This document shows, piece by piece, positions 21,141-63,365 of a DNA stretch of 64,000 nt. How positions within the stretch are numbered: position 1 is the first letter of the stretch; each line of letters begins with the position of its first letter. Origin of the DNA: Minisyncoccota bacterium. GTDB taxonomy: Bacteria; Patescibacteriota; Minisyncoccia; Phycocordibacterales; UBA9973. Location of the stretch: positions 65,881 to 129,880 of the forward strand of contig JBAYHJ010000001.1 of NCBI GenBank assembly GCA_041666225.1. The letters run 5' to 3'. The notes beneath the pieces were generated by a model. The model ran no database searches. It saw nothing but the letters and a program-made list of their open reading frames with translations, and was not told where the DNA came from. A program made the translations under genes and the position numbers.

Positions 21141-21142
21141 AT

Positions 21143-42377: not shown

Positions 42378-45300
42378 ATGAAAAATTATATGAAAAAAAT
42401 AATAGTCGGAATTTTAAGTTTTGTTTTCCTTTTTGTGGGACAAAATGTTTTTGCTGCTACTATTTGGAATACAGGATCAGGTGGCCCCGAATGTCCAGAT
42501 ATAAATATTGCAAACTATACTACTAATACCGGATATGGTTCTCCTTGTTGGACAGGGACAAACATAAACGCCAATCCTGGTGATACTATAAATGTAAAAA
42601 TTTATTATCATAATACAAGTAATACAACTGCTACAAACACAGTTATTAAACTAGTTGCTCCTACTGGATCTTCTACTAACCATTCATTCACTGCTCAAAT
42701 TGTTTCACCTCAAGGAAGTTTATATTCTGCTCCTGTAACAGTAACTATTCCCTCATCCCAAACACTAAGTTTTGGTTCAACAATTTGGTATACAAAACCA
42801 GATCCTATTAATCAGCCAAATTATTTAGCACCAACTCCACTATTAAATGGACAAAATGGAGCTGATGTTATTAGCACAAACGGAGGTTTATATATTGGAA
42901 ATATTGCTTCAGGTTGGACAACCCAAGGAGCTGTTGTTGTCAGTTTTAAAGTAAGTAATACAACTACAAATTCAAATTGTACACTATCTAGTTTTTCCGC
43001 AAATCCTTCAACTATAAATCCAGGGCAATCTTCTACTCTCACTTGGGGTATGGCTAACTGTGCGTTAGTTAAACTTTATGATGGGCCTACTTTGATTGGA
43101 GTTTACAATAGTCCTCAAACACAAACATCTGTCTCTCCAGTATCTACGACAAATTACAACCTACAAGCTTATAGTTACAAAGGAATATTGAGTGGTTCAA
43201 AAAATACGACAGTCACAGTAAATCCTATTGTTCAACAAATGACTGGAAATATTTCTGTCACACCTCCAGCTTCTACTTCTTGTGTAATCGCCTCGGGGAA
43301 TAGTACTTGTGGAATTTCATTTACATGGACTACCCAAAATCCTGAAGCAGTTTCAGCTGTAACTCACAATGGAGCAACAGTAGCAAATGGGAATAATGGG
43401 ACAAAAACATTTGCAATTTCTAAAGGACCCCAAACTTATTTCTTGTATAATAATACTGTATTATTAGACCAAGAAACTGTTTATGCAAGTTGTGCTGTGA
43501 ATACTTCATGGAACGGATCTTCTTGTGCGCCTACAATTGTTACCAATAATTGTATTATTGATAGTTTTTACGGAGACCCTACCTCAATAACATCGACCCA
43601 AGATTCAACTCTTAAGTGGACATCAAGGGGTTGTAGTTATTTTAAACTCTATGAAGGAACAAATCTAATTAATACTTATTATGGTAATCAACAAATCGTT
43701 TCACCCAATGTAACTACAACTTATACCCTAAAAGCTTATAATTATAATAATATTTTAGGTGATTCAGAAAGTACTACTATCACAGTTAAGGGAATAATTA
43801 TTCCAACTGATACTTGTACGATTAAAGGTTTTACCGCAAGCCCTGATTTTATTAAACAAGGAGGTTATTCAACTCTCGTATGGAGTACAAGTAATTGTGT
43901 GAGTACAAGTATTTCACCAAGTATAGGACCTGTTGTCCCTGTAATTGGAGGTTCTTTAAAAGTTAAACCAATTCAAACTACTACTTATACCTTAACTGCG
44001 ACAGGATCAAATGGTGTTGTTAAAAGACAAACAGTAACAGTTGTCGTTGATTCAATAATAATTTCTGGTTGTAAAATAAAAAACTTTACCGCAAATCCTG
44101 ATTCTATAATGATAAGTGATTATTCTGTCCTTAAATGGGAAACAGAAGGTTGTACAAAAGTAACCATCTCAAATCTTGCATACAATATTCCTACATCAGG
44201 AGAACAAAAAGTTTGGCCAACTCAAACAACAAATTATATATTGAGTGCTGAAGGTGAAAATGGGTTGGGCATGGATGCTCAGGTTACTATTTATGTGAAT
44301 TCAGTTCCTTCCACTTGTAAAATAAATGACTTCGCGGCAAGTGATACATCTATAAACTTAGGTGACTCGTCAACTCTCTCTTGGAGTACAAGTAATTGTG
44401 CCCATGTTGCAATTTCAAATATTGGTAATGTAGACGCAGTTAATTCCAAAGTAGTTTGGCCTGTAATTACAAAAACTTATACTCTAACAGTAGAGAATCA
44501 ATATGGTAGTGTTGTGGATTCAAGAGCGGTCACTATCTATGTGAATGACAATAACAACAATACTTGTAAGATCAATAATTTCACCGCAAGTGATACAAGT
44601 ATAGACGATGGAGATTCTTCAACATTACACTGGAATACAACAAACTGTGAACGTATAAAAATTTCAGATGTTGGTGACTATCTATCTGACGATGGAAGTG
44701 AAACTGTTTCTCCAAATGAAGATACCACATATGTTTTGACTGCCTATGATTCAAACGGCACACACGATACAGCTTCCGTAAGAATATATGTAGATAACAA
44801 CAACAATAATGATAATGATTGTTCTATTGATAGTTATTCTGCCAGCGATACATACATAAGTCGTGGTGATGATGTTACTCTAAGATGGAGGACAACTGAT
44901 TGTGATGATGTAAGTATTACAAACGTTGGAGATGTTAATGATGATGGAAGTGAAACTGTTTCTCCTTATAGTACAACAACTTATGTCTTGAGAGCTTATG
45001 GTAATCATGGTAGTGATTCTGAATCAATAAAAATAAATGTTGATTACAATAATTATGAAACTGACAATACAAATGTAGTTACAACAATTGCGACAAATAT
45101 TTCTCAAAATAGTGCTCAAGTAAATGGTCTTATCACAAACACAAATTATAATAGTGCAAGTACATATTTTGAATATGGTACAAATGTCACTCTTGGTATG
45201 AGAACCTCGTCTCGTAATGTCAGTGGTAGTACTAACTTTAGCGAATACTTAACTAATTTAAGTCCAAATACAATCTATTATTTCCGAGCAGTTGGCGAAG

Positions 45301-45989
45301 GGTCAAATGGCGTCTCTCGTGGAGCAATAGAAATATTTAGAACTCTTGGATATACAAATTACAACAACACTAATTACAATAATACCAATACAACAACTAG
45401 AACAATAAGAGAATATGTCTATCAGCAAGGAACGACAGTTTCTGGTTCCGAATCACCGATTGTTCTTAGGATTGAAAATAAATACCAAAATATTGGAATA
45501 GGAGATATTGTTGACTATGTTGTTTTCTATAAAAATATCAGTAGCTCAACACTTACTCATCCGATGGTTCAAGTATTTATCCCACAAGGTTTGACACTTC
45601 TAAACTCTTCAAGAGGAACTTATCAAGTAGATGACAGAACTCTATCTGTTCCTATTGAAGACTTATATCCTGATGCAGAGGGTGTAATATATTTACAAGC
45701 AAGAGTTGATTCTTTGGAAATAAACTTAGCACAAATAGTTACAACCGCTGTTCTTGTTTACACAAATCCAAATGGAGCACAAGAAAATGCAATGGCTTAT
45801 GTCTTAAATAATCCTAAAATTGTAAACTTACTTGGTGCATCTGCTTTCTTTGGAGGCATGTACGGCATGAGTTTGATTGGCTGGTTAATATTGATATTAA
45901 TTATATTATTGTTAATATTTATTGCTAGAAGTTTCTATTATCGTAGAAATATAACAACAACTACTCATACGACATCTACCCACTTATAA
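42378..45989 (+). CDS. Giant cell-surface protein (1203 aa): signal peptide, about eight tandem ~95-aa Cys-bracketed beta-domain repeats, N/T-rich linkers, C-terminal TM anchor
   Basis: Repeated modules C(K/T)I(K/N)xF(T/A)AS(P)D.I..GD(S)STL.W.T.NC..V.IS; C-terminal LIGWLILILIILLLIFIARSFYYRR. Confidence 0.5.
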   Translation: MKNYMKKIIVGILSFVFLFVGQNVFAATIWNTGSGGPECPDINIANYTTNTGYGSPCWTGTNINANPGDTINVKIYYHNTSNTTATNTVIKLVAPTGSSTNHSFTAQIVSPQGSLYSAPVTVTIPSSQTLSFGSTIWYTKPDPINQPNYLAPTPLLNGQNGADVISTNGGLYIGNIASGWTTQGAVVVSFKVSNTTTNSNCTLSSFSANPSTINPGQSSTLTWGMANCALVKLYDGPTLIGVYNSPQTQTSVSPVSTTNYNLQAYSYKGILSGSKNTTVTVNPIVQQMTGNISVTPPASTSCVIASGNSTCGISFTWTTQNPEAVSAVTHNGATVANGNNGTKTFAISKGPQTYFLYNNTVLLDQETVYASCAVNTSWNGSSCAPTIVTNNCIIDSFYGDPTSITSTQDSTLKWTSRGCSYFKLYEGTNLINTYYGNQQIVSPNVTTTYTLKAYNYNNILGDSESTTITVKGIIIPTDTCTIKGFTASPDFIKQGGYSTLVWSTSNCVSTSISPSIGPVVPVIGGSLKVKPIQTTTYTLTATGSNGVVKRQTVTVVVDSIIISGCKIKNFTANPDSIMISDYSVLKWETEGCTKVTISNLAYNIPTSGEQKVWPTQTTNYILSAEGENGLGMDAQVTIYVNSVPSTCKINDFAASDTSINLGDSSTLSWSTSNCAHVAISNIGNVDAVNSKVVWPVITKTYTLTVENQYGSVVDSRAVTIYVNDNNNNTCKINNFTASDTSIDDGDSSTLHWNTTNCERIKISDVGDYLSDDGSETVSPNEDTTYVLTAYDSNGTHDTASVRIYVDNNNNNDNDCSIDSYSASDTYISRGDDVTLRWRTTDCDDVSITNVGDVNDDGSETVSPYSTTTYVLRAYGNHGSDSESIKINVDYNNYETDNTNVVTTIATNISQNSAQVNGLITNTNYNSASTYFEYGTNVTLGMRTSSRNVSGSTNFSEYLTNLSPNTIYYFRAVGEGSNGVSRGAIEIFRTLGYTNYNNTNYNNTNTTTRTIREYVYQQGTTVSGSESPIVLRIENKYQNIGIGDIVDYVVFYKNISSSTLTHPMVQVFIPQGLTLLNSSRGTYQVDDRTLSVPIEDLYPDAEGVIYLQARVDSLEINLAQIVTTAVLVYTNPNGAQENAMAYVLNNPKIVNLLGASAFFGGMYGMSLIGWLILILIILLLIFIARSFYYRRNITTTTHTTSTHL

Positions 45990-46042: not shown

Positions 46043-46492
46043 ATGAAAGCCAAATTTAATAAAAAAGAGATACCCAAAATAGCTCAAAATATATTAGATA
46101 AAATAGTAAAAACCAAAAATAATAAAGCTAAAATTTTAGCTTTATCTGGTGAATTAGGAGCGGGTAAAACAACTCTCACTCAAAGCTTTGCAAAACATCT
46201 CGGTGTTAAAGAAAAAATAGTTTCGCCAACATTTGTGATTATGAAATTTTATAATATTGGTTCAAAATCTATTTATTATTCTAGTTTTAAAAAATTGATT
46301 CATATTGATGCTTATCGTCTTGAATCATCTCTGGAATTATTAAAAATAGGTTGGGAAGAAATAATTGAGAATAATGATAATTTAATTATTATAGAATGGC
46401 CAGAAAAAGTAAAAAAAATTATTCCCCCTACTGTTTTTAATATTTCACTTTCTCATATTGACGAAGAAACTCGCTTAATAGAATTTTTGTAA
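46043..46492 (+). CDS. tsaE: tRNA threonylcarbamoyladenosine biosynthesis protein TsaE
   Basis: LSGELGAGKTTLTQSFAKHLGV...SPTFVIM. Confidence 0.8.
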   Translation: MKAKFNKKEIPKIAQNILDKIVKTKNNKAKILALSGELGAGKTTLTQSFAKHLGVKEKIVSPTFVIMKFYNIGSKSIYYSSFKKLIHIDAYRLESSLELLKIGWEEIIENNDNLIIIEWPEKVKKIIPPTVFNISLSHIDEETRLIEFL

Positions 46493-46510
46493 TTCTGCTA
46501 TAATTAGTCT

Positions 46511-48985
46511 ATGGCAACAAAAAAGACCGACAAAAAAAGACTAATTTTACTCGATTCCCATGCAATTATTCACCGAGCCTATCATGCCCTCCCTGAGTTT
46601 ATGAACTCGCGTGGTGAGCCTACTGGGGCCATATACGGCCTTGCTACGATGCTTTTTAAGATTATTACCGATTTAAAACCGGACTATATTGTGGCTTGTT
46701 TTGATCTACCTAAAAAGACCTTTCGTCACGAAGCATATGATGATTACAAAGCCGGGCGAGCCAAGGCCGACGATACCCTAGTAGCTCAGCTCATAAAGTC
46801 ACGTGATTTTTTTAAAGCTTGTTCTGTGCCGATGTATGAATGTGAAGGGTTTGAAGCCGATGATTTACTTGGAACAATCACTGAACAATTAAAAAAGAAA
46901 AATAAAGATATAGATATTATTATTGCCTCTGGCGATATGGATACTTTGCAACTTGTCGATGACGATCATGTACAAGTTTATACCCTCAAAAAGGGAATCA
47001 ACGATACAATTTTATATAATGAAGAAAAAGTTTTTGCGCGTTTTGGATTTTCTCCAGACAAATTACCAGACTACAAAGGTCTTCGTGGAGATCCGTCTGA
47101 TAACATTATTGGGATAAAAGGAATTGGAGAAAAAACAGCGACGACCCTAATATCAAAATATGGCACAGTTGAAAATATTTATAAAACTCTAAAGAAAGAA
47201 GGAGAATTAAAAGAAATTGGAATAACAGATCGCATAGTGACTCTTTTAAAAGAAGGAGAAGAAGAAGCACTTTTTTCAAAAACTTTAGCCACTATTCGTC
47301 GTGATGCACCGATTGTTTTTGAGTTACCCAAAAATGAATGGAAGAATACTGTTGATAAAAACAGTGTCGCTGAATTTTTCCGCGACATGGAATTTAAAAG
47401 TTTACAAAATAGATTTTTGAATGTTTTAGAAGGTTCTAATCTTAATGACGCTTCGCAGGAGAGAGGAAAAGGCCAAAGTCCTTTGAGCGATGGTCTGGCC
47501 GAGCCCCTTGAATCTTTCGATGATGTTGGGCGAGGAGATCCGAGGACCTTGCGAGGAGGAGCTTTGGCCTTGGACGATCTCGAAAAAATTAGCAAAGCCA
47601 AAATTGCTTTCTGGCTTCTTAATTCTGAAAGAACAGACCCTGATCTCGATGAGGTTATAAATTATAAAGGTTGTAAAACTTTAGATGAGGCATTGTTAAA
47701 ACTTGAAGAAGATATAAAAAAGCAAAAACTCACATATGTCTATGAAAATATTGAACAACCGATTACTCCGATAATAGATAAAATGGAGAAACAAGGGATC
47801 CTTGTTGATGTTTCATATTTAAAAAAGATTGGAGAAGAATATCATAAAGATTTAGAAATTTTAGAAAAGAATATATGGCAAGAAGCTGGAGAGGAATTTA
47901 ATATTAATTCACCAAAACAAATTAGTGAAATTCTTTTTACTAAACTCGCTCTTTCTATTAAGGGTATTAAGAAAAGTGCGGGGGGAGCAATATCTACCCG
48001 TGAAAGCGAACTTGAAAAACTTAGAGATGTGCACCCTATAGTTGGCGAAATATTGAAACACCGCGAACTTCAAAAATTATTATCAACATATATAGATACT
48101 ATTCCCGCTCAAGTTGGACCAGACGGCAGGCTTCATGCACATTTTATTCAGGCGGGTACTACAACAGGCCGTTTTTCTTCAAACAATCCAAATTTACAAA
48201 ATATTCCGATTAAAACCGAGCGTGGGAAAAATATTCGTAATGCTTTTATTGCCCCTGAGGGTTACTTTCTTGCCTCATTTGATTATTCACAGATTGAGCT
48301 TCGTGTTGCGGCTTTGATGTCGCAAGATTCTTATTTTGTAAAAGCTTTTGAAGAGGGCAAGGATATCCACTGCGCAGTGGCAATGAAAGTTTTTGGAGTT
48401 TCTGAAGAAGATGTAACTCATGATATGAGACGCCGAGCCAAAGTTATTAACTTTGGAATTCTCTATGGCATGGGAGTAAATGCGCTTAAGGAAAATCTTG
48501 GTACAGACAGGAAAGAAGCTCAAATATTTTATGATAATTATTTTGCTCAATTCCCAACTATTGCCGGATATTTAGAGAGTATTAAAAATTTTGCAAAAGA
48601 ACATGGGTATACAGAAACTCTTTTTGGAAGAAAGAGATATTTCCCAGGGATTAAATCTCCCATTCCTTTTATTAGAGCAATGGCTGAACGTATGGCGACC
48701 AATGCGCCGATTCAAGGAACTGCGACTGCAGATATTATAAAGATTGGGATGAAGAAGGCTGACGATGCACTCAGAAAAGCTTCACTTATAAATGATGTAA
48801 GGTTAGTCCTTCAGGTTCACGATGAATTGGTTTATGAAATAAAAAAAGAAAAGAAAGATGAAGCGACCAGGATTATTGAGGAAGCGATGAAAAATGCGAT
48901 TCCAGATGAGTTTTTAGAAGGAAAAGAGAAAGTACCACTCCTTGTTTCAGCTGTTTTAGGTAAAAATTGGGGGGAGTTAAAATAG
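46511..48985 (+). CDS. polA: DNA polymerase I (5'-3' exonuclease + polymerase domains)
   Basis: Pol A motifs RRRAKVINFGILYGM and VHDELVYE, with an N-terminal FEN domain. CTGCTATAAT-N6-ATG lies upstream. Confidence 0.9.
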   Translation: MATKKTDKKRLILLDSHAIIHRAYHALPEFMNSRGEPTGAIYGLATMLFKIITDLKPDYIVACFDLPKKTFRHEAYDDYKAGRAKADDTLVAQLIKSRDFFKACSVPMYECEGFEADDLLGTITEQLKKKNKDIDIIIASGDMDTLQLVDDDHVQVYTLKKGINDTILYNEEKVFARFGFSPDKLPDYKGLRGDPSDNIIGIKGIGEKTATTLISKYGTVENIYKTLKKEGELKEIGITDRIVTLLKEGEEEALFSKTLATIRRDAPIVFELPKNEWKNTVDKNSVAEFFRDMEFKSLQNRFLNVLEGSNLNDASQERGKGQSPLSDGLAEPLESFDDVGRGDPRTLRGGALALDDLEKISKAKIAFWLLNSERTDPDLDEVINYKGCKTLDEALLKLEEDIKKQKLTYVYENIEQPITPIIDKMEKQGILVDVSYLKKIGEEYHKDLEILEKNIWQEAGEEFNINSPKQISEILFTKLALSIKGIKKSAGGAISTRESELEKLRDVHPIVGEILKHRELQKLLSTYIDTIPAQVGPDGRLHAHFIQAGTTTGRFSSNNPNLQNIPIKTERGKNIRNAFIAPEGYFLASFDYSQIELRVAALMSQDSYFVKAFEEGKDIHCAVAMKVFGVSEEDVTHDMRRRAKVINFGILYGMGVNALKENLGTDRKEAQIFYDNYFAQFPTIAGYLESIKNFAKEHGYTETLFGRKRYFPGIKSPIPFIRAMAERMATNAPIQGTATADIIKIGMKKADDALRKASLINDVRLVLQVHDELVYEIKKEKKDEATRIIEEAMKNAIPDEFLEGKEKVPLLVSAVLGKNWGELK

Positions 48986-50153: not shown

Positions 50154-50484
50154 TTTAGACAAAAAGAAAAGGCTTGGAAGTTGAACCTCAAAAATTTGAG
50201 AACCAGCTTCCAAGCCTTTGGCTTTATTAGAAACAAAGAACGACTCACGAATAATAATGTGAGTATAAATGTGCTAAATAATGATTATATATCTTTCCCG
50301 ATATTAATATCCCAATACATAGGGAGAATGTTGGAAAGATTATTTCAAATACGTCTTAATTACATTATATAATAAAACTGGGGATAAGCAAAGACATAAG
50401 GGGATAACTTTCATACCCCATATTTATAGGTGTTGATTTTTAAGCATAAATGTGGTATTTTTGATAAATCGTGCTATTTAATAT

Positions 50485-50557
50485 CCTCTCGTAGCTCAGT
50501 TGGTAGAGCAGCTCCCTTTTAAGGAGATGGTCGTAGGTTCGATTCCTACCGAGAGGA
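50485..50557 (+). tRNA. tRNA-Lys (anticodon UUU)
   Basis: Acceptor CCTCTCG/CGAGAGG, D-arm GCTCagttggtaGAGC, anticodon loop cuUUUaa, T-arm GTAGGttcgattCCTAC; no encoded CCA. Confidence 0.85.
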
Positions 50558-50605
50558 CAAGAATAAAAACCTTAAGAAATTGAGGTTTTTATTCTTGTCC
50601 TCTCG
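50550..50605 (+). terminator. 23-bp perfect inverted repeat hairpin (includes the tRNA 3' acceptor strand)
   Basis: CGAGAGGACAAGAATAAAAACCT-10nt-AGGTTTTTATTCTTGTCCTCTCG. Confidence 0.5.
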
Positions 50606-50749
50606 AGCAAGCAAACTGCTTTGCTTGCGTGTAGGAAGTGAAAAGCTTTTCAGTAAATATGAGCATTTATGCGAATATTTTTGAAAAGGTGTACTGGTTA
50701 TGTAATGACCGATAAGAGTACTCGCTGTCCTATAGAACCTAACCCAGAC

Positions 50750-50791
50750 AGGAATCGAACTTTTGTGTATTTCTGATATAATTTGATTATG
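50750..50791 (+). promoter_or_regulatory. Conserved 42-nt promoter cassette copy 1 (GAATCGAAC...TATTTCTGATATAAT-N6-ATG), leaderless-type
   Basis: Aligns column by column with copies at 54031 and 55175. Confidence 0.55.
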
Positions 50792-51277
50792 GAAAATTTA
50801 TCAATAAAATCAAAAGAAATAATAGAGAAAATTGAGTATCTTAATTTGGCTACTATTACACCAGAAGGGTTACCTTGGAATAGCCCAGTATATTGTTCTT
50901 TTGATAAAGACCTTAATTTCTATTGGTTATCTTGGAAAGAAAACCAACATTCAAAAAACATAAGAAACAATGAAAATGTTTATGTGACAATTTATGACTC
51001 AACAATATTTTCGGGAACTGGGATTGGTGTTTATTTTCAAGGCAAAGCATATGAATTAAGTAATCCTATAGACATAGTTAAAGGTTTAACTCATCATTAT
51101 GGAAGAAGTAAAAAGAAAATAAAAGATGTAATAATGTTTCTTACTTCATACCCAAGGAGAGTTTATAAATTTGTTCCAGAAAAAGCTTGGATTAATGGCG
51201 AAGGAGAAATAAACGGTAATTACATAGATACTAGAACAGAGTTAGATTTAGAGGAATTAAAGAAAATGATTAAATAA
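50789..51277 (+). CDS. Pyridoxamine 5'-phosphate oxidase-like FMN-binding split-barrel protein (general stress protein 26-like)
   Basis: LNLATITPEGLPWNSPVYCSFDKDLNFYWLS...NVYVTIYD. Confidence 0.45.
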   Translation: MENLSIKSKEIIEKIEYLNLATITPEGLPWNSPVYCSFDKDLNFYWLSWKENQHSKNIRNNENVYVTIYDSTIFSGTGIGVYFQGKAYELSNPIDIVKGLTHHYGRSKKKIKDVIMFLTSYPRRVYKFVPEKAWINGEGEINGNYIDTRTELDLEELKKMIK

Positions 51278-51281
51278 TTTT

Positions 51282-51881
51282 ATGAAAAAAATTGGACAAG
51301 GGTGGCAATATACGACATATGATTTAGGAAATGGAAAGGTTTTAAAAAAATTTCATTCTTGGACTAAAGCTTATTTTGTAATTTTCTGGCAAATATTTCC
51401 ATTTAACAAGGATTCTTTTTTTGAGATTCCTAGTTTTATTAAAGATGTAAAAAGAAAGGCCGATGTTTCATTTAAAATATTAAAAAGAGTTAACATTCCA
51501 CAAGAATGGATGGCAAATCCAAGGTTTATTAATAAATATGATTTTGAGCAAGATAAGGTTATCGCCCTGCATGAAGCGTTTGAAGGTTTGGACTCTAACG
51601 GAATTAAAAAAATCGTAGATCAGTTTATTGAATTTAATTTAAAATTATTAAAACTCGGTGTAATAGATAAAAGTTTCAACATTACAAAAAATTACGGGAT
51701 AAATAATAAAGGAGAGGTAGTGCTTATTGATATAGGAGAACTTTTTGATAATAAAGAATTAATAAGGAAACAACTAAATGACCGTGGGTGGACCAATAGT
51801 TATGTGGGAGGATGTATTAAAGACAAAGAGGCTCAGGAGTATTTTATTAATGAGATGGATAGAAATTTTAATTTGAATTAA
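51282..51881 (+). CDS. Hypothetical protein, possibly a small atypical kinase-like fold
   Basis: GQGWQYTTYDLGNGKVLKK (glycine loop + Lys), VVLIDIGE (DxG); weak. Confidence 0.25.
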   Translation: MKKIGQGWQYTTYDLGNGKVLKKFHSWTKAYFVIFWQIFPFNKDSFFEIPSFIKDVKRKADVSFKILKRVNIPQEWMANPRFINKYDFEQDKVIALHEAFEGLDSNGIKKIVDQFIEFNLKLLKLGVIDKSFNITKNYGINNKGEVVLIDIGELFDNKELIRKQLNDRGWTNSYVGGCIKDKEAQEYFINEMDRNFNLN

Positions 51882-51887
51882 AACAAT

Positions 51888-52502
51888 ATGAAACTAATAC
51901 TAGCGTCAGATTTAAGTTTTCTATTAAAATATGGCTATGACCTGACAGGTATTTCCAAAAATCAAATGAGTGTAGGTTATGTGACAACTGCTTCCAAGGG
52001 TACCCCTAATTCAGATTACATAAAAAAGTACAGTAAAATTATAAGCGAAAATGGCATCTATCTTAAAGAGATAGACATTGAAAATAAAAACGAAGAAGAA
52101 CTAAGAGCATTTTTCAAAGATAAAAATATTATTCACATAGAAGGTGGAAGTACTTTTTACTTATTAAATGCGATGAAAGCCAATGGTTTTGATAAATTAC
52201 TAATAGAACTTCTTAATCAAGGGAAAGTATATATTGGTACTAGCGCTGGAGCTGCAATAATGGGGATAACCATAAAATCAAGCTCTGGTATCCCTGAAAA
52301 TCCAACAAAAGAGATGCTGCGAGGATTAGGACTAGCTCCGTTTGTAATACAAGCTCATTACACAGATGATAAAAAAGAAGAATATAAAGAAAAAACGAAG
52401 GATTTAGAATACCCAGTTAAATTTTTACGAGACGGGCAAGGTTATTTTGTTGAAGATGACAATTATACTTTTATTGGTGAAGTAGAAGAAGTTAAAATAT
52501 AA
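51888..52502 (+). CDS. Peptidase E / S51 family (type 1 glutamine amidotransferase-like) peptidase
   Basis: IHIEGGSTFYLLNAMK...VYIGTSAGAAIMG. Confidence 0.6.
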   Translation: MKLILASDLSFLLKYGYDLTGISKNQMSVGYVTTASKGTPNSDYIKKYSKIISENGIYLKEIDIENKNEEELRAFFKDKNIIHIEGGSTFYLLNAMKANGFDKLLIELLNQGKVYIGTSAGAAIMGITIKSSSGIPENPTKEMLRGLGLAPFVIQAHYTDDKKEEYKEKTKDLEYPVKFLRDGQGYFVEDDNYTFIGEVEEVKI

Positions 52503-52507
52503 ATATT

Positions 52508-52930
52508 ATGTTAAAAGTAGATTTTTACAATTTAGGAGAAATAAAAGATAGTGATCTTTCTTTTTCTGTGATTACAGCTATACATAATAGTAAATGGGTA
52601 TTTACCAAACATAGGAAAAGAGATACTTGGGAAACACCAGGTGGAAAAAGAAATGAATCTGAAAGTATTGATGAATGTGCTTCCAGAGAATTAATTGAAG
52701 AAACAGGAGCCGATAAATTCAGTTTAATTCCTTTATGTATTTATTCAGTTGAGAAAGAAGACAAAAAAGATTTTGGGCAGATATATTATTCCGAAATTGA
52801 TAATTTTAATGAATTACCTGATTTTGAGATGGAAAAGATAGAATTTTTTGATAAATTACCAGATAAACTAACTCATCCGTTAATTGAGTCACTTATATTT
52901 AAAAAGGTTTTAGAGATTCTAGGTAAATAA
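52508..52930 (+). CDS. NUDIX hydrolase
   Basis: Nudix box GGKRNESESIDECASRELIEETGA. Confidence 0.7.
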   Translation: MLKVDFYNLGEIKDSDLSFSVITAIHNSKWVFTKHRKRDTWETPGGKRNESESIDECASRELIEETGADKFSLIPLCIYSVEKEDKKDFGQIYYSEIDNFNELPDFEMEKIEFFDKLPDKLTHPLIESLIFKKVLEILGK

Positions 52931-52931
52931 T

Positions 52932-53969
52932 ATGGAAAAATTTTACACTGAACATAAAGGAAAGGTTATAAATACTGATAATAAATTTACTCATGTTATG
53001 GCTATTACTCTCGACCCTAGGACTCAATACAAAGAGGGGGTTATTAGATGTATAACAAGCCGTGAAGGGGACATACAAACAAAGGGCTATATAGACAGAA
53101 GTGAACTTCATAAAATAAAAGGAAATTTATTAGAAAGTTTCGAAATTGAACAAAAGTTAAATATAAAAAATGAAGGAGATATAATAAAAGAATTAACTCT
53201 AGAAGGTTATGAGTTTATTGGATTAGAAGACCCTGATATTTGGATAGATGAAGAAAATGATTTGATACATTTATATTTTACAATTCCAATAATTAATAAA
53301 AAAGAACATGGTAAAAATAAAATTCACCTTGGTCATGCTGTTGGGAGGGATTTGGATTCTTTAGAAATGACTACACCTGTTTTACTTGCAGACGAAATTG
53401 GAGGAGCTAAAGAATTATCCATAGTTCCAATAAATAAAAAAGGTTTCAGGTATAATTTAGTAGAATCAAGTAAAAAAGAGGAAGATTTTAATTATTCAGT
53501 AATTAGAATAGCTGTTACAGAAGATATGAATAAAGAATGGAAATTTGGAGATATTATATTTCACCCCAAAGAACACAATATTCCGTGGATTGGAGGACAT
53601 GCTTCTCCGGGACCATTGTTGCCGGAAAGTTTTATATATATAGGAGAAGGTAAATTATTGGGTTTTATAAATGGTCGTGAAGCGAATCAGAAAGGAGAAA
53701 ACGAAAAAACTAAATATGGGATATTTTCTATTGGGTTGTTTGTGTATGATTATGAAAAGGGGAAAATAGAATGGGTGTCACCCGAACCATTTATTCAAGA
53801 CAGTGAAGCTGTCACTATTACATTTGCGAGTCATTTTATAGAAACAGGTGAAGGGGAAGGAATTTTATATGCTCATGTAGATGATTCATTTGTAAGGGCG
53901 TATACATTAAAAAGTGAACAAGTAAAACAGTTTTTGATTAAATATAGTTGTCCTTATTCCGTGTCTTAA
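52932..53969 (+). CDS. Hypothetical protein (beta-rich, possibly propeller-like)
   Basis: 345-aa ORF, last gene of the operon driven by cassette 1. Confidence 0.35.
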   Translation: MEKFYTEHKGKVINTDNKFTHVMAITLDPRTQYKEGVIRCITSREGDIQTKGYIDRSELHKIKGNLLESFEIEQKLNIKNEGDIIKELTLEGYEFIGLEDPDIWIDEENDLIHLYFTIPIINKKEHGKNKIHLGHAVGRDLDSLEMTTPVLLADEIGGAKELSIVPINKKGFRYNLVESSKKEEDFNYSVIRIAVTEDMNKEWKFGDIIFHPKEHNIPWIGGHASPGPLLPESFIYIGEGKLLGFINGREANQKGENEKTKYGIFSIGLFVYDYEKGKIEWVSPEPFIQDSEAVTITFASHFIETGEGEGILYAHVDDSFVRAYTLKSEQVKQFLIKYSCPYSVS

Positions 53970-54030
53970 TAAAAATCCTATTATATAATCTATTCAAAAC
54001 AGGTCTTTGTTCTGAGAACTCAAGCTCAAC

Positions 54031-54072
54031 GAGAATCAAACTTTTATCTATTTCTGTTATAATTTAAATATG
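54031..54072 (+). promoter_or_regulatory. Conserved promoter cassette copy 2 (GAGAATCAAAC...TATTTCTGTTATAAT-N6-ATG)
   Basis: See copy 1. Confidence 0.55.
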
Positions 54073-55134
54073 AAATTAGAAGATTTTGGTTACAGCGACT
54101 TTTTTGAACATTCTAGAAAAGAATTGAAATTAGAGGATTTTTCTATTGCCCGAGTTATTGCCGAATACAAGGGAGCTTATAAAATAAAAAATACAGATGG
54201 GGAATATTTTGCCAAAGTTACTGGTAAAAAGATTTTTAATGCTAAATCAAGAGAAGATTATCCTGCTGTGGGGGATTGGGTAATAATAAAAGAGCAAGAT
54301 AGAGAATGGGCTGTGATACAAGAGGTATTACCAAGGCAAACACTCATAAAGAAAAAATATAATAATAAAAATGGAATTCAAATAATTGCAACCAATATAG
54401 ATGTGGCTTTTATTGTGGAATCAATTGGTAGAGACTATAATTTAAATCGTTTTGAAAGATATTTTGCGATAGCCAACGATGGAGGTGCCCAGACCACTAT
54501 TATTTTAAATAAGATTGATTTAATTTCCAAAGAAGAATTAAATTTAAAATTAGTTCAAATAAAAGAAAGATTTAAAAATGTTGATATTATTCTAACTAGT
54601 ACTATAACCGATGAAGGATTAAAAGAATTAAGATCGTATATATTATCTGGGAAAACATATTGCTTTTTGGGATCCTCGGGGGTTGGTAAATCATCTTTGA
54701 TTAATAGGTTACTAGAAGAAAATGCACTTGAAACAAATGATATTAATTTTGAGACAGGTAGAGGAAAACACACCACAACAAGAAGAGAAATGTACTTTTT
54801 GAAAAATGGAGGAATTGTTATAGATAATCCAGGAACCAGAGAGGTGGGAATGGCCGATACAAGGGAAGGTGTGGATAGTACTTTTGATGAAATAATAGAA
54901 TTAGCCAAGAAATGTAAATTTGCTGATTGTTCTCATATTTCTGAACCCGGGTGCAATGTTTTGCTTGGATTAGGGTCTGGTGAATTAGATGCGGAGAAAT
55001 ATTCTAATTATATTAACTTGAAAAAAGAAACCGAGTATTATGAGATGACTGAAACGGAGAGGAAGGAAAAAGACTATAAGTTTGGGAAATTTATAAAAAA
55101 AGCCAAAAAGGAAATAGAAAAATATAAAATATAG
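54070..55134 (+). CDS. rsgA: Ribosome small-subunit-dependent GTPase A (RsgA/YjeQ)
   Basis: Circularly permuted GTPase: ILNKIDL precedes GSSGVGKSSLINRL, and a C-terminal CKFADCSHISEPGC zinc motif follows. Confidence 0.8.
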   Translation: MKLEDFGYSDFFEHSRKELKLEDFSIARVIAEYKGAYKIKNTDGEYFAKVTGKKIFNAKSREDYPAVGDWVIIKEQDREWAVIQEVLPRQTLIKKKYNNKNGIQIIATNIDVAFIVESIGRDYNLNRFERYFAIANDGGAQTTIILNKIDLISKEELNLKLVQIKERFKNVDIILTSTITDEGLKELRSYILSGKTYCFLGSSGVGKSSLINRLLEENALETNDINFETGRGKHTTTRREMYFLKNGGIVIDNPGTREVGMADTREGVDSTFDEIIELAKKCKFADCSHISEPGCNVLLGLGSGELDAEKYSNYINLKKETEYYEMTETERKEKDYKFGKFIKKAKKEIEKYKI

Positions 55135-55174
55135 ACACCAAAATAGTTTTTATATATAGTTTGCCAACCCATTT

Positions 55175-55216
55175 GAGAATCGAAATTTCCTGTATTTCTG
55201 ATATAATCTACATATG
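55175..55216 (+). promoter_or_regulatory. Conserved promoter cassette copy 3 (GAGAATCGAAA...TATTTCTGATATAAT-N6-ATG)
   Basis: See copy 1. Confidence 0.55.
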
Positions 55217-56065
55217 GTTGCTTTTTTAAGTTATCTATTTTATTTTATAGCTGCAAGTGCATCACCACTTCAACGTAGATGGCTTGCTACACATAGAAAT
55301 ATAAAAAACGAAGGACAAATACGTCTCGCTTTTCAGGTTACACTTATAACTGTCATATTGAGTTTTACACTACCTCTTTTTGAACCATTTCGTCTTCAAG
55401 GGAATATTTTCCATTTGATTGGTTTATCACTCACTTGTGGATTATTTGGTGCTGGTTATTTTGTTTTTTCATATACAGCTCAAAAACACGTAGAAGCTGG
55501 AATTAGTTCATTAGTTAGTAATATTTACACACCAATTACAATAGTATTAGCAACTTTACTTTTAAATGAAAAACTGACACTAATTCAAATACTTGGAACC
55601 GTATTATTGATAATTGGAATATTGGTTGTATCAAGAAAACACCGAATAGGAAGATTTAAATTTGATAAATATTTTATGCTCATGGTTCTGTCTGGGGTAA
55701 TGATGGGTATTTTACTTGTGGCAGAACGAGCATTAATGAAAATAACTGGATTTTCAGCAGGGGTAATGCTTTCTTGGTGGTCACAGTGTTTGTTTTTGGG
55801 AATAGCAACATTGATAACTCATAGCAAAAGCGTTTATACTAAAAAAGACATAGCCATTACCGGAGTACTTCGATTTCTTCAATCGCTTTCATGGGTGGTT
55901 CTAGTTTTTGTTGTAGGGAATCTAAGTATTGTTTCTGCTATAACAACATTTAAAGTAGTCGTCGTATTTATTGCTGGAGCTATCTTTTTAAGAGAGAAAG
56001 AAGATTTACCAATAAAAATATTGGGTAGTATAATAGCATTAGCAGGACTTTTATTAATGAAATGA
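55214..56065 (+). CDS. EamA/DMT-superfamily transporter-like membrane protein
   Basis: About 10 hydrophobic helices in two halves. Confidence 0.4.
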   Translation: MVAFLSYLFYFIAASASPLQRRWLATHRNIKNEGQIRLAFQVTLITVILSFTLPLFEPFRLQGNIFHLIGLSLTCGLFGAGYFVFSYTAQKHVEAGISSLVSNIYTPITIVLATLLLNEKLTLIQILGTVLLIIGILVVSRKHRIGRFKFDKYFMLMVLSGVMMGILLVAERALMKITGFSAGVMLSWWSQCLFLGIATLITHSKSVYTKKDIAITGVLRFLQSLSWVVLVFVVGNLSIVSAITTFKVVVVFIAGAIFLREKEDLPIKILGSIIALAGLLLMK

Positions 56066-56075
56066 TAAAGAATTT

Positions 56076-57806
56076 ATGAAAGGGACAAAAACACCAGAAT
56101 TTGATGCACTACTAGATAAGATATTAGACGAGTTAATCCCTCATATAAGAGTTTGTTTGGATTGTAAAAAAGAATTTAAAATAGAAGAGGGTGATGTTTC
56201 TCTACTTAAAATGTTGCGTTCACCCGCCCCAAAACTTTGTCCTGATTGTCGCCATAGAAGAAGATTATCCTTTTCAAATTATTCAAATATATATAAACGG
56301 AAATGCGATATACCAGGTCATAGTGATACTATGCTTTCACCTGTCGCTCCTATTATTCCTTGGGTTATTTATGATTACGATACATATTATTCGGATTTAT
56401 GGGATCCATTTTCTTACGGAAGAATAGTGAATGAAACTCAGTCATTTTTTGATCAATTTTTAAGTTTAATGAAAGTTGTCCCATTGCCAGGAGTGCGTCG
56501 GGGTAAAAACTCCATTAATAGTGATTTTTGTTTTTATGGAGAAAGTTTAAAAGATGGGTATTACGTTTTCGGAGGTAGAAGATCGGAAAATGTATTATTT
56601 AGTACTTCCATTTATGATTCTAAAAACATTATAGATTCATATTTTCTTCGCAGGGTTGATTCAGCCTATGATAATATAGGCACTTCTGATTGTTACAAAT
56701 GCCAATACGCATATTTTTCATCAAATTGTATTGAATGTGATTTCGTTTATGATTGTCGTAATTGCCAAAATTGTTTTGGTTGTGTTAATTTGCGGAACAA
56801 AAATTATTATATTTTTAATGAAAAATTTAGCCCAGAAGAGTATACAAAAATAAGAAATGAAATAAACCTAGGTAGTAGAAAAGTTAAAGATGAATATCAG
56901 AATAAATTTTGGGAGCTTATAAAAACAAACCCAATCCGTGCAGCACGAATTTTTAATTCCCAAAATGTTTTTGGAAATGATATAAAAAATTCTAAAAATT
57001 GTAGAGATGTTTTCCAAATAGAAGATTCTGAAAATGTTAGACATTCTGCGTTTGTAGTTTTTAAAGTAAAAGATTCAATGGATGTTGGTTTTAGTGGCAG
57101 AGCTCAGGGTAATTATGAAGCCCAAAATGTTAGTGCCAATTCTTCGAGTGTCAAATTTTCCTTCGCAGTAAAAGAATCTACAGATTGTGAGTTTTTGATA
57201 AATTGTCAAAATTGCACAAATTGTTTTGGGTGTGTTGGACTTAAAAATACATCCTATAGTATTTTTAACAAGAAATATGAACCAGAGGAATATTTTGAAA
57301 TTCTAGATAGTATTAAAACAAAAATGCTTCAGAATGGAGAATATGGAGAATTTTTTCCAATGTCTTTTGCTCCATATGCTTACAATAGTTCTATGGCACA
57401 TGTTATTTATCCTATGACAGAAGAAGAAGCTAAAAAGCGTGGTCTTTTTTGGCAACCCGACACGACTGTTGATACAAAAAATCTAAAAAGTATTAAAGTT
57501 CAAGAGTTGCCAGATAATATTTTAGATGTTGGATATGAAATTTGTGAATTAGCCATTATCGGAGAAAAATCAGGGAAACCCTTTCGTTTAATAAAAAGGG
57601 AAATTGATTATTATAAACAAAATAATATTACCTTGCCCAATGATACACCATACCAGAGGATGCTTGATCGTTTTAAGATTTTAAACAATTTTAAAGTTTT
57701 TAATGAAACTTGTGATTTTTGTAATAAACAAATAGAATCAGCATATAAAAGGTCAGATGGTTTTAAACCATATTGTGAAGATTGTTATAAGAGAGAAATT
57801 GTATAG
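56076..57806 (+). CDS. Cys-rich hypothetical protein with repeated NC(Q/T)NCFGCV(N/G)L(R/K)N modules
   Basis: CLDCKKE...CPDCRHRRR near the N-terminus; NCQNCFGCVNLRNKNYYIFNEKFSPEEY and NCTNCFGCVGLKNTSYSIFNKKYEPEEY repeats. Confidence 0.35.
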   Translation: MKGTKTPEFDALLDKILDELIPHIRVCLDCKKEFKIEEGDVSLLKMLRSPAPKLCPDCRHRRRLSFSNYSNIYKRKCDIPGHSDTMLSPVAPIIPWVIYDYDTYYSDLWDPFSYGRIVNETQSFFDQFLSLMKVVPLPGVRRGKNSINSDFCFYGESLKDGYYVFGGRRSENVLFSTSIYDSKNIIDSYFLRRVDSAYDNIGTSDCYKCQYAYFSSNCIECDFVYDCRNCQNCFGCVNLRNKNYYIFNEKFSPEEYTKIRNEINLGSRKVKDEYQNKFWELIKTNPIRAARIFNSQNVFGNDIKNSKNCRDVFQIEDSENVRHSAFVVFKVKDSMDVGFSGRAQGNYEAQNVSANSSSVKFSFAVKESTDCEFLINCQNCTNCFGCVGLKNTSYSIFNKKYEPEEYFEILDSIKTKMLQNGEYGEFFPMSFAPYAYNSSMAHVIYPMTEEEAKKRGLFWQPDTTVDTKNLKSIKVQELPDNILDVGYEICELAIIGEKSGKPFRLIKREIDYYKQNNITLPNDTPYQRMLDRFKILNNFKVFNETCDFCNKQIESAYKRSDGFKPYCEDCYKREIV

Positions 57807-57816
57807 AACAAATAAT

Positions 57817-58383
57817 ATGAAAAAAATAATTTTAGCCTCTACTTCATATCACAGAAGAGAACTACTTGAAAAAACAGGATTAGTATTTGAAGTTGTTTCG
57901 AGTGATTATGAAGAGGATATGACCCTTGATTTAATACCAAGTGAATTAGCAAAATTTTTATCAAAAGGGAAAGCAGATAGAGTTGCAGAAAATTTTGAAG
58001 ATGCGATTATAATTTCTGCAGACACTTTTGTATCTATTGATGGTAAAATTTTAGGAAAACCTCATACAGAAGAAAAAGCAAAGATTACTTTAAACACATT
58101 AAGCGGAAGGACACATTCAGTTTTTACTGGTTATACTATTATTGATACTAAAGACAAAAGAGTGGTATCCAAAGCTGTTGAAACGAAGGTTACTTTCTTG
58201 CCACTTACCGAAGAAATGATTGAAGAGTATATTAGAGTTGGGAACCCATTAAAATTTGCTGGTTCGTATACATTGACTGATGTCAGTGATAAATTTATCG
58301 AAAAAATTGAAGGGGACCATAATAATATTATTGGTTTGCCAGTAGATGAAGTTATGAAAACATTAAAAGAGTTTGATATATAA
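57817..58383 (+). CDS. maf: Maf-like nucleoside triphosphate pyrophosphatase
   Basis: KIILASTSYHRRELLEKTGLVFEVVSSDYEE; the internal Met start was chosen. Confidence 0.8.
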   Translation: MKKIILASTSYHRRELLEKTGLVFEVVSSDYEEDMTLDLIPSELAKFLSKGKADRVAENFEDAIIISADTFVSIDGKILGKPHTEEKAKITLNTLSGRTHSVFTGYTIIDTKDKRVVSKAVETKVTFLPLTEEMIEEYIRVGNPLKFAGSYTLTDVSDKFIEKIEGDHNNIIGLPVDEVMKTLKEFDI

Positions 58384-58392
58384 AAATATAAT

Positions 58393-59040
58393 ATGAAAAT
58401 CAAAGATATTTACAATAAATACCAAATTCCTGAACATCTACGGCAACACATGTATAGAGTTACTGCGGTGGGTTTATTGGTAAATGATTTTTTGTCTGAT
58501 TTTGTAAAACTTGATAAAAATATCCTTTCTACGGCAATGCTACTTCATGATATTGGTAATATAATCAAATTTGATCTGAATAGTGATCTTCTTAAAAAAG
58601 AAAACATTGAAAATCTTGAAAAAATTAAAAATGATTTTATTTTAAAATATGGAGACGATGAACATATTGCTACACTGAGTATAGTTAAAGAAATAAAAGT
58701 GAATCAAAAGGTTATAGATATATTAGATAATATTGGTAGTTCAAAAATTCAATCAACCATAGATTCAGATGATTGGTATAAAAAGGTTTGTTCTTATTCT
58801 GATTTTAGAGTTGCTCCTTATGGTGTTACAAGCATTGAAGAGCGTTTTAATGATGTAATTAAAAGATATAAAGGGCTTGGTCATATTCTTGGAGATGTTG
58901 AAAAAACTGAACAAAAGAAAATAGATGCTTTAACCTTAGAATCACAAATACAGGAAAAATGTTCATCTTCCCTCGATTTAATTAATGATTTGAAAATAAA
59001 AAATATAGTCGAAATGTTAGAAGAATACGAAATTAATTAA
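58393..59040 (+). CDS. HD-domain phosphohydrolase
   Basis: H...LLHDIGN motif. Confidence 0.5.
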   Translation: MKIKDIYNKYQIPEHLRQHMYRVTAVGLLVNDFLSDFVKLDKNILSTAMLLHDIGNIIKFDLNSDLLKKENIENLEKIKNDFILKYGDDEHIATLSIVKEIKVNQKVIDILDNIGSSKIQSTIDSDDWYKKVCSYSDFRVAPYGVTSIEERFNDVIKRYKGLGHILGDVEKTEQKKIDALTLESQIQEKCSSSLDLINDLKIKNIVEMLEEYEIN

Positions 59041-61638: not shown

Positions 61639-61640
61639 AT

Positions 61641-61685
61641 AAAAGTAATTAAAAATTAATAATTAAGAATTAATAATGAAATTCT
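61641..61685. repeat. AT-rich dispersed repeat copy (AATTAAAAATTAATAATTAAGAATTAATAATG)
   Basis: Same family. Confidence 0.6.
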
Positions 61686-62622: not shown

Positions 62623-62625
62623 GTA

Positions 62626-62663
62626 AAAATAATTAAGAATTAAAAATTACGAATTGAAATACT
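62626..62663. repeat. AT-rich dispersed repeat copy (AATAATTAAGAATTAAAAATTACGAATTGAAATAC)
   Basis: Same family; near-identical to 16589-16620. Confidence 0.65.
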
Positions 62664-63240
62664 AACGTTTCCCTAGAACTTGGAGAGCTTCTTTGATGCG
62701 AGCATTTGTGCCTATCGTTGTATGGGGTACTTTTTTTAGTGCGTCGCGAGCTTCGTTTTGTGAGTAGCCAAGAGATTTGAGAGCTTCAATAATATCACTT
62801 TCATCACGAAGTGAACTTGGAGTATCGGAATCACTTTTGTAATCTTGTAATTTGTCTCGAAGTTCAATAATGATTTTCTCAGCTGTTTTTTTGCCAATAC
62901 CTGAAACTTTGTTTAGATAACCAGTATCTCCAGTTGCGATTGCTCTTTTTAATGTATCAATAGGAGCGATAGCAAGTATTGAAAGTGCTCCCCGTGGTCC
63001 AATACCAGAAACATCAAGTAGAAGCTCAAAAAATGACATCTCGTTTATGCTCTTGAACCCATATAGGTCAATAGAATTCTCTCGTACCGCTGTATGTACC
63101 CAAAAGGATGTATGTTCTCCTAAAACAGAAGTAGTAAGATTTTCAGAAGTAATAGATAGTTTGTATCCAACTCCCGAAACATCAACAATTATGAATTTTT
63201 CATCTATATGAACTATAATTCCCTCTATTTTTGCAATCAT
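62662..63240 (-). CDS. ruvA: Holliday junction DNA helicase RuvA
   Basis: MIAKIEGIIVHI...VSGVGYKL and HhH in LLDVSGIGPRGALSIL. Confidence 0.85.
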   Translation of the reverse strand: MIAKIEGIIVHIDEKFIIVDVSGVGYKLSITSENLTTSVLGEHTSFWVHTAVRENSIDLYGFKSINEMSFFELLLDVSGIGPRGALSILAIAPIDTLKRAIATGDTGYLNKVSGIGKKTAEKIIIELRDKLQDYKSDSDTPSSLRDESDIIEALKSLGYSQNEARDALKKVPHTTIGTNARIKEALQVLGKR

Positions 63241-63300
63241 ATTTTTATAATATCAAATATTGCTCTTTTCGGCTATTTCTGGTATTCTAATGGAGTCTCA

Positions 63301-63365
63301 GTCAAAAAATTAATAAGAAATTTAATTCGTAATTCGTAATTAATAATTCGTAATTACTTAACATT
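63301..63365. repeat. AT-rich dispersed repeat, reverse-orientation variant (AATTCGTAATTCGTAATTAATAATTCGTAATTAC)
   Basis: Same family, in the divergent ruvA/rpsT spacer. Confidence 0.6.

Follow-up and report, generated by a model that had tools for sequence, protein, structure and literature searches.

What places one short sequence directly before the start codons of three unrelated genes within a few kilobases of a bacterial genome? The question is raised by a 64,000-nucleotide (nt) stretch of contig JBAYHJ010000001.1 (Minisyncoccota bacterium, assembly GCA_041666225.1, positions 65,881 to 129,880 of the forward strand), referred to here as the window, in which the initial annotation had described three 42-nt stretches that can be aligned column by column. 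These were placed upstream of a five-gene PNPOx-like operon, of rsgA and of an EamA transporter operon, a gene context that is borne out by gene calls and Pfam searches (Table 1). Our analysis indicates that the three sites are probably copies of one reused promoter module, about 55 nt in length and of the sigma-70 type, which would yield leaderless mRNAs and which a subclade of Candidatus Paceibacterota places at the head of accessory-gene blocks.

Direct reading confirmed that the three stretches align without gaps. The common start GAGAATC that had been given for the motif does not apply to site 1, which has AGGAATC instead, while the rest of the three-site alignment stands. A repeat search independently groups 50741-50792, 54022-54073 and 55166-55217 as one family (D11; 52 nt, 75-77% identity), and a degenerate 39-nt pattern, AATCRAAMTT-N5-TATTTCTGWTATAAT-N6-ATG, matches these three sites only, even at three mismatches, with 0 matches in 100 shuffles. 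The exact sequence TATTTCTGWTATAAT has three matches in the window. A hidden Markov model (HMM) of the module, built on 18 distinct copies from several genomes, returned the three sites at E = 1e-15 to 1e-9; its sole other match in the window is a weak one to the -10 half before polA (46484-46504, E = 0.77). Because none would be expected by chance, as the shuffles and the D11 family indicate, three copies in register are not a chance occurrence. All of them lie inside 4.5 kb, and no further copy was found in about 9 kb of added flanking sequence from the same organism.

The downstream half of the module carries the argument for a promoter. In all three copies a perfect extended -10 element, TTCTGnTATAAT (TGnTATAAT), stands exactly 6 nt before the first possible ATG. 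TATAAT is exact in the three window copies and in all 18 distinct copies of the HMM, and the TGn extension is present as TGATATAAT, TGTTATAAT and TGATATAAT in copies 1, 2 and 3, respectively. At all three sites a TGA or TAA in frame with the ATG, within the hexamer or just 5' of it, excludes earlier starts, so that this ATG, 6 nt past TATAAT, is the first usable one; a TTG abutting the hexamer at site 1 is the sole alternative. The A of the ATG is the seventh base after the hexamer in each copy, and the seventh base past the hexamer is the usual start-site distance. With a gap of 6 nt, transcription is therefore expected to begin at this A. The 18-nt stretch 5' of each ATG contains no GGAG, GAGG, AGGA or AAGG, and Shine-Dalgarno (SD)-like motifs precede just 7 of the 52 genes of the window. 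The leaderless reading thus fits a genome with practically no SD sequences. In a survey of Parcubacteria, an anti-SD motif was detected in only 48% of the 16S rRNA genes (PMC9297842). No conserved -10 was found in the minus-strand direction of the module, and a divergent promoter was rejected.

The same geometry recurs in relatives. Among the 18 distinct copies from other contigs the spacing to the ATG is 6 nt in 15 and 7-8 nt in three, and an open reading frame (ORF) of 160-570 amino acids (aa) lies behind each. Folding of L104 and L132 shows a terminator hairpin with a U-run (-10 to -13 kcal/mol) directly 5' of the module, and alignment places one there in L086, L126 and L134 as well (L-numbered names denote related contigs or genomes used for comparison). 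The L104 hairpin was missed by a simple terminator scan and confirmed by folding. Because the terminator ends about 60 nt before the ATG in these relatives, the promoter of the gene must sit inside the module. Operon-internal genes have no such hexamer, which argues that it is not a general translation signal. A scan of GTDB representative genomes for TATTTCTGnTATAAT-N6-ATG gave at least 120 loci, with the source genome not among the matches listed. Genomes of the candidate phyla radiation (CPR) make up 29 of 120 among the matches listed, and in these same matches the ATG opens a long ORF in 27 of 29 CPR cases versus 43 of 91 from other taxa. The hexamer-N6-ATG layout appears to be common in CPR as a whole.

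Orthologous genes allow the -10 to be followed separately from the rest of the module. A TAtaAT-like hexamer, mostly with TGn, stands 6-7 nt before the ATG or GTG in 13 of 13 rsgA orthologs (69-100% aa identity) and is kept even where the remaining upstream region is unrelated. Orthologs of module copy 2 precede rsgA in L005, L086, L107 and L134. At polA the window has the -10 half of the module only, and the polA orthologs of five genomes keep AATTCTGnTATAAT-N6-ATG/GTG, the TTCTGnTATAAT of the module being conserved there at an equal distance from the ATG or GTG; the start of ruvA is of the same leaderless type (Table 1). The earlier reading of the three sites as promoters of leaderless mRNAs fits all of this comparative evidence, the predicted lack of a leader following from the geometry of the sequence.

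The upstream half is as strongly conserved as the -10. It extends from about -56 to -24 as AAYC...RRAATCGAAC-TTTT, with RRAATCGAAC at about -40 to -29 and an AAYC-rich box 5' of it at about -52 to -41, the latter being weaker in copies 2 (54021-54030) and 3 (55165-55174). Across the 18 distinct copies, conservation is 90-100% at -36 to -24 and at -21 to -7. This upstream box is not the normal -35 of the clade: the tRNA-Lys and tRNA-Arg promoters of several genomes have TTGATT or TTGCGA, a 17-nt spacer and TGnTAttTT. The candidates for a -35 within the module, TCGAAC, TCAAAC and TCGAAA at 16 nt from the -10, do not resemble TTGACA, and a simple sigma-70 scan calls copy 3 alone (TCGAAA-16-TATAAT with TG; 4/6 consensus). 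Motifs of LexA, sigma-E/ECF (extracytoplasmic function), sigma-H, CtsR, DnaA and CRP were compared by eye with the 18 copies, and none fits both half-sites or the spacing. For the LexA (Cheo) box, GAAC-N4-GTTC, the left half is present in CGAAC-TTTT and the right half varies (GTGT, GTTT, GCGT, GGAT, ATCT, CCTG).

Read on the other strand, the box recalls a tRNA. Its reverse complement, GTTCGATTCCTGTCTGGGTTA, follows the order of T-loop, 3' T-stem strand and 3' acceptor strand in a tRNA, and agrees with the clade's tRNA-Arg(GCG) at 18 of 21 positions, the best tRNA match seen. This layout, together with a likeness to a neighbouring repeat described below as Element A, suggests that the upstream half may be derived from a tRNA, the similarity being short. 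Folding of the module as a single strand gave no significant structure on either strand (z-scores of -0.9 to +0.9), and z-scores so near zero argue that the module acts as duplex DNA; an attC-like hairpin and a riboswitch were rejected on the same grounds. A tRNA or pseudo-tRNA was also rejected, since ARAGORN, Rfam at gathering thresholds and a permissive Rfam scan of 50400-50850 gave only tRNA-Lys and chance hairpins.

Element A is a sequence of about 125-140 nt situated beside, and convergent with, tRNA-Lys or tRNA-Arg. The window copy (50596-50720) falls between tRNA-Lys and module copy 1 and is read in the minus-strand direction, and the element recurs in many relatives. Compensatory changes occur at 21 of the 34 pairs in the consensus fold of Element A, which contains tRNA-Lys-like pieces of the T-arm and 3' acceptor (GUAGG ... 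UUCGAUU-CCUAC ... CGAGAGGACA) split by inserted hairpins. There is no Rfam match and no ARAGORN call for Element A, which may be a new tRNA-like RNA or a tRNA-derived repeat. The tRNA-Lys gene itself is bordered by a hairpin of more than 25 bp (50548-50607), in which the 3' acceptor strand and about 12 further nt pair with a downstream inverted copy. Across genomes this inverted copy changes together with the tRNA acceptor (e.g., GAGGAC/GTCCTC vs GGCGCAC/GTGCGCC), and the same arrangement is found at the tRNA-Arg of L019.

The genes that follow the module are not conserved with it. Pattern scans and the HMM located the module in at least 12 related contigs, always 6-8 nt before the ATG of a long ORF, and at least 11 unrelated gene families stand behind it: PNPOx-like, RsgA, two EamA types, GNAT, NUDIX, SDR, HAD, LdcA-like, S51-like, 2-hydroxyacid dehydrogenase and a 573-aa zinc-ribbon protein. 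It usually comes right after tRNA-Lys and sometimes directly after a terminator. According to gene maps, tRNA-Lys(UUU) anchors a variable region, and in seven genomes the operon that opens this region has the module; the copy nearest to the tRNA is 30-220 nt downstream of it (about 165 nt for copy 1), with a different gene behind it in each. In blastn comparisons of the window with L128, L104 and L086, homology stops at 50790-50796, at most 7 nt from the ATG. Blocks such as NUDIX with a 149-aa gene, GNAT and LdcA-like occur in differing orders between genomes. Because the genes behind the module are swapped between genomes while the module stays, a reused promoter is favoured over a recent duplication.

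The possibility of duplication had been raised for the three window copies; as a recent event it is contradicted by their identities. The three are 62-74% identical to one another (copy 1 vs copies 2 and 3, 70-74%), compared with 82-86% between copy 1 and the tRNA-Lys-proximal copies of other genomes. Module identity before the unrelated gene families is 70-92%. Copies cluster by position and not by genome, so the window copies are best regarded as old paralogs kept by selection.

These results support a mechanism that can be outlined as follows. Housekeeping sigma-70 RNA polymerase can use an extended -10 without a -35, and here it would read the near-consensus extended -10 TTCTGnTATAAT in this way. 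The transcript would begin at the A of the ATG, and the leaderless mRNA would be read directly by 70S ribosomes, as geometry and conservation together imply. The upstream half, which occupies the place of a -35 and of upstream contacts, most likely has a binding role, tentatively with whatever sets promoter strength or a common control; a regulator or polymerase contacts peculiar to the clade are candidate binders. Alternatively, it may be kept as homology for block exchange. The module heads house-cleaning and salvage accessory blocks (NUDIX, HAD, PNPOx, GNAT, SDR, peptidases, Maf, EamA) beside tRNA-Lys and rsgA. To our knowledge, almost nothing is known about transcription and translation initiation in CPR, and we know of no cultured member of this clade. 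The module offers a concrete, testable promoter positioned for leaderless mRNAs, and it shows that rsgA and polA retain a hexamer 6-7 nt before the start codon throughout the clade. As a compact and portable expression signal it could find use in genetic tools for these organisms, and the gene swapping behind it points to an accessory-gene hotspot beside tRNA-Lys.

Several observations weigh against this interpretation. rsgA and the EamA gene follow their preceding genes without an intervening terminator, so their mRNAs could also arise by read-through, in which case the AU-rich TATAAT region could serve translation instead. Before rsgA the upstream box is confined to a subclade and missing at 8 of the 13 orthologous loci, which means that it is not needed for rsgA expression. 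Pfam scans of 26 neighbouring proteins detected no DNA-binding domain near the modules; with no regulator found and the box dispensable for rsgA in other relatives, the co-regulation that had been suggested is a conjecture. All copies found sit in one small region per genome, and a relative's contig of 137.6 kb has a single strict module match; being local and few, the copies fit local reuse better than a dispersed regulon. Finally, a possible dyad, CAGRAAT (-40..-34) N13 ATTTCTG (-20..-14), was considered and rejected as an operator: only L027, L126 and L107 have a perfect version of the dyad, the remaining copies a partial one, and its right half was fixed by the search patterns.

The swapping of genes has another conceivable explanation, in which the module, derived from a tRNA and about 55 nt long, would serve chiefly as a recombination junction that marks the 5' end of exchangeable blocks, the promoter having been carried along or having evolved in place. 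Exchange would proceed by homologous recombination between module copies or through an unknown site-specific recombinase. The genes behind the tRNA-Lys-proximal module differ in seven of seven genomes, with the module and the tRNA-Lys side 77-92% identical and homology ending within 7 nt of the ATG, and the same blocks recur in different orders, as this explanation would have it. The antisense of the box, GTTCGATTCCTGTCTGGGTTA, with its 18/21 match to tRNA-Arg(GCG), is also the tRNA part that integrases use as attachment sites; in contrast to classical attL/attR repeats, however, the tRNA-like piece runs opposite to tRNA-Lys, and no integrase or recombinase stands beside the window modules. 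Two further points speak for a junction. Set against four relatives (L104+L005, L107, L128 and L135), the window has the segment from tRNA-Lys through rsgA (50485-59040) in inverted orientation with respect to the polA-holA and ruvA-fpg blocks on its flanks. In L134 (5057-6651) an IS110-like transposase gene (5374-6429) lies between the tRNA-Lys terminator palindrome (6599-6651) and a stretch (5057-5140) made up of a partial 3' end of tRNA-Lys, a terminator and the module's 5' half, which suggests an insertion of the IS110-like element into the tRNA-Lys terminator. This gene near a half copy is the only sign of movement: the modules show no inverted repeats, target duplications or hairpin (z about 0), and a phage or mobile origin was rejected after 0 matches to the module in 2.9 million viral contigs. 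Moreover, orthologous blocks of L019 and L126 stay homologous through the module and about 20 nt beyond, so the breakpoint is not fixed at a core site, and promoter function, not recombination, accounts for the strict 6-nt distance to the ATG and for the perfect -10. We consider a junction as the main role rather unlikely.

A combination of the two is conceivable, in which the tRNA-derived module of about 55 nt would be both a ready leaderless promoter and a recombination or homology site forming the 5' boundary of exchangeable blocks beside tRNA-Lys; this, too, we judge unlikely. If true, it would solve the expression of newly acquired genes in organisms without SD-based translation and would resemble an integron in its result, with no integrase known. 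Element B, a conserved sequence of about 100 nt that marks the 3' ends of island genes in relatives and is among the points in favour of a junction, would then delimit the blocks on their 3' side.

Element B is situated right after the stop codons of island genes, in gene orientation, and ends in ...TTATAATAATCTCCTGTTCTGGGGACC; it is often followed by a terminator and then by the module. RNAalifold predicts no consensus pairs, and a structured RNA was rejected. The window contains no copy at E < 0.01.

The possibility of read-through leads to a third explanation, according to which the module is a translation-initiation region and not a promoter, an unstructured AU-rich ribosome landing site that replaces the SD sequence on polycistronic or long-leader mRNAs. 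The genome is without SD sequences, no terminator separates the PNPOx block, rsgA and EamA, and no stable RNA structure is predicted, all of which such a role would accommodate. On the other hand, operon-internal genes also need translation initiation and are without the hexamer, several relatives have a terminator directly upstream, and conservation reaches about -56, far past a ribosome footprint. The motif is, moreover, the exact sigma-70 extended -10 consensus at the exact start-site distance. This explanation is very unlikely.

An alternative sigma factor that reads the module, with GGAATCGAAC as its -35 and a small stress or house-cleaning regulon as its target, appears highly improbable. 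The box does lie at the -35 position, its AAC ending 16 nt before the -10 hexamer with a spacing typical of ECF-type promoters, and ECF-like sigma genes are found near rsgA in L137, L142 and L144. The ECF/sigma-E architecture, a GGAAC-type -35, a spacer of about 16 nt and a -10 of the CGTC or TCTGA type, is nevertheless not what is seen, the -10 being the housekeeping TGnTATAAT. The Escherichia coli sigma-E pattern GGAACTT-N16-TCTGA does not fit either, as the gap between GAACTT and TCTGA is just 9 nt here; the Bacillus subtilis sigma-H type of -10 (GAAT) is absent, and the window has no sigma gene near the modules. In more distant relatives without the upstream box, ECF-like sigma-factor genes or fragments occur within a few kb of rsgA (L137 1528-2241 and 9414-9800; L142 14486-15040; L144 16917-17065).

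The most improbable proposal of all is that the upstream half, a leftover of a tRNA-derived repeat beside a good -10, has no function and owes its conservation to shared ancestry. Box and spacer do resemble Element A (L104 Element A GGAATCGAAAGGCTTTTGTGTCTTT vs module GGAATCGAA-CTTTTGTGTATTT), and other relatives have an rsgA that manages without the box. Against this proposal, copies before unrelated genes show 90-100% conservation at -36 to -24 and at -21 to -7 in genomes whose core genes are only 70-78% identical at the DNA level, the neighbouring intergenic sequence is not similarly conserved, and Element A is undetected by the module HMM, which makes the homology of the two weak.

The promoter module thus favoured lies in a genome of CPR character. 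The RsgA of the window is 100% identical to a protein from a Candidatus Paceibacterota metagenome-assembled genome, and the G+C content of 32% and the presence of PBP1, a type IV pilus ATPase, polA, tsaE and many large proteins without recognized domains fit a CPR genome. Coordinates of the features are collected in Table 1.

Table 1. Coordinates of the promoter modules, their parts, neighbouring genes and repeated elements in the window and in related contigs.
Feature	Contig	Position	Strand	Sequence or remark
Site 1	Window	50750-50791		AGGAATCGAACTTTTGTGTATTTCTGATATAATTTGATTATG
Site 2	Window	54031-54072		GAGAATCAAACTTTTATCTATTTCTGTTATAATTTAAATATG
Site 3	Window	55175-55216		GAGAATCGAAATTTCCTGTATTTCTGATATAATCTACATATG
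Module copy 1	Window	50724..50791	+	Ends in ATG of PNPOx-like gene; HMM E = 1.3e-15, D11, pattern match
Module copy 2	Window	54011..54072	+	Ends in rsgA ATG; HMM E = 1e-9, D11, pattern match
Module copy 3	Window	55149..55216	+	Ends in EamA transporter gene ATG; HMM E = 1.1e-9, D11, pattern match
Extended -10, copy 1	Window	50771..50782	+	TTCTGATATAAT
Extended -10, copy 2	Window	54052-54063		TTCTGTTATAAT
Extended -10, copy 3	Window	55196-55207		TTCTGATATAAT
AATCGAA box, copy 1	Window	50750..50760	+	AGGAATCGAAC; about -40 to -30; positions at least 90% conserved in 18 copies; equivalents 54031-54041, 55175-55185
Upstream AAYC box, copy 1	Window	50740..50749	+	TAACCCAGAC; about -50 to -41; from alignments
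polA promoter	Window	46490..46513	+	TAATTCTGCTATAAT-N6-ATG; -10 half of module only; overlaps tsaE stop codon; HMM E = 0.77
ruvA promoter-like site	Window	63241..63255	-	TGATATTAT-N6-ATG; leaderless-type start without box
tRNA-Lys(UUU)	Window	50485..50558	+	ARAGORN and Rfam
Five-gene block behind copy 1	Window	50789..53969	+	PNPOx_N, 199-aa protein, Peptidase_S51, NUDIX, 345-aa protein
rsgA behind copy 2	Window	54070..55134	+	Pfam RsgA_GTPase 4e-46
Block behind copy 3	Window	55214..59040	+	EamA, 576-aa protein, Maf, HD-domain protein
Element A	L086	3145-3279
Element A	L104	6757-6891
Element A	L134	11507-11639
Element A	L126	2640-2764
Element A	L135	9602-9738, 9735-9826
Element A	L019	171-324, 2250-2375
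Element A	L127	2008-2144
Element A	L143	2255-2365
Element B	L134	7756-7863, 6648-6749, 3937-4022, 2871-2971, 9697-9789, 1540-1581
Element B	L005	11-118
Element B	L019	7171-7277
Element B	L126	1421-1535
Element B	L128	4413-4502
Element B	L086	5120-5199
Element B	L062	5655-5747
AATTAAG-type arrays	Window	16529-16631, 20180-20229, 20559-20605, 21029-21149, 27504-27604, 32372-32435, 61640-61689, 62624-62673, 63324-63377

Other repeats of the window were seen as well. Arrays with a 7-nt period (AATTAAG, AATTAAT or AATTACG) are intergenic and mostly lie directly upstream of start codons; since they occur in either orientation, a role at the DNA level is suggested, as a promoter or upstream element or as a protein-binding array. 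A perfect tandem of about 10 units, (AGAAAGT)n, at 10078-10151 runs up to the ATG of the gene at 10147. A Y1_Tnp gene of the IS200/RAYT type (8516-9184), has its own TATAAT-N6-ATG start, and copies of the hairpin GTCCAGGCnnGCCTGGAC lie at about 8475, 8690, 9225 and 9920, which gives the region 8470-9940 the look of a REP/RAYT or IS200-like system. At 14674-15804 and 43812-45000, internal repeats of 90-135 nt fall within the very large ORFs 14200-16527 and 42378-45989 and are probably repeated protein domains of surface proteins.

Searches of the literature turned up neither leaderless promoters nor promoter modules for Patescibacteria, and the module adds a case to two known phenomena, leaderless extended -10 promoters and promoter reuse, in a phylum for which no earlier description of either was found. 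Its setting resembles several systems of gene exchange. Like integron arrays (attI/attC, Pc), the locus holds small accessory blocks with conserved junctions and a content that varies between relatives; unlike them, the module does not fold like attC, each block has its own promoter in place of a shared Pc, and the junction lies at the 5' ends of genes. No integron integrase (IntI) or integrase domain was found among the 26 proteins scanned. As at island integration sites in tRNA 3' ends, the variable region abuts tRNA-Lys and the box antisense has the T-loop/T-stem/acceptor 3' layout; in contrast to these sites, the fragment is inverted with respect to tRNA-Lys, matches a tRNA at no more than 18 of 21 positions and has no adjacent integrase.

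Closer parallels exist among repeated promoters. Putative mobile promoters and promoter reuse have been described (Matus-Garcia, Nijveen and van Passel, 2012; commentary PMC3575422), and the module shares with them the occurrence of highly similar promoters before non-homologous genes, both within one genome and across genomes. It differs in that no link to a known mobile element was found and in that its copies, all within a single variable region beside tRNA-Lys, are old and positionally stable and not near-identical products of a recent spread. Promoter-bearing small repeats, among them Correia elements, ERIC and REPIN-type repeats, are named in the same commentary (PMC3575422); as with these, a short repeated intergenic sequence gives the neighbouring gene an outward-facing promoter, whereas the module is without terminal inverted repeats, target duplications or a hairpin and has one orientation and a fixed distance of 6-8 nt from the start codon.

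In its downstream half the module corresponds to a well-known class. Extended -10 (TGn) sigma-70 promoters drive leaderless mRNAs in Actinobacteria and Deinococcus-Thermus, and Cortes and colleagues are said to have reported the leaderless transcriptome of Mycobacterium tuberculosis in 2013. As in those promoters, TGnTATAAT is predicted here to put +1 at the A of the start codon, with no SD sequence and an ATG or GTG at the 5' end. Unlike them, it belongs to Patescibacteria/CPR and comes as one fixed module, about 55 nt long, whose non-canonical upstream half is conserved, in place of -10 boxes that evolved independently.

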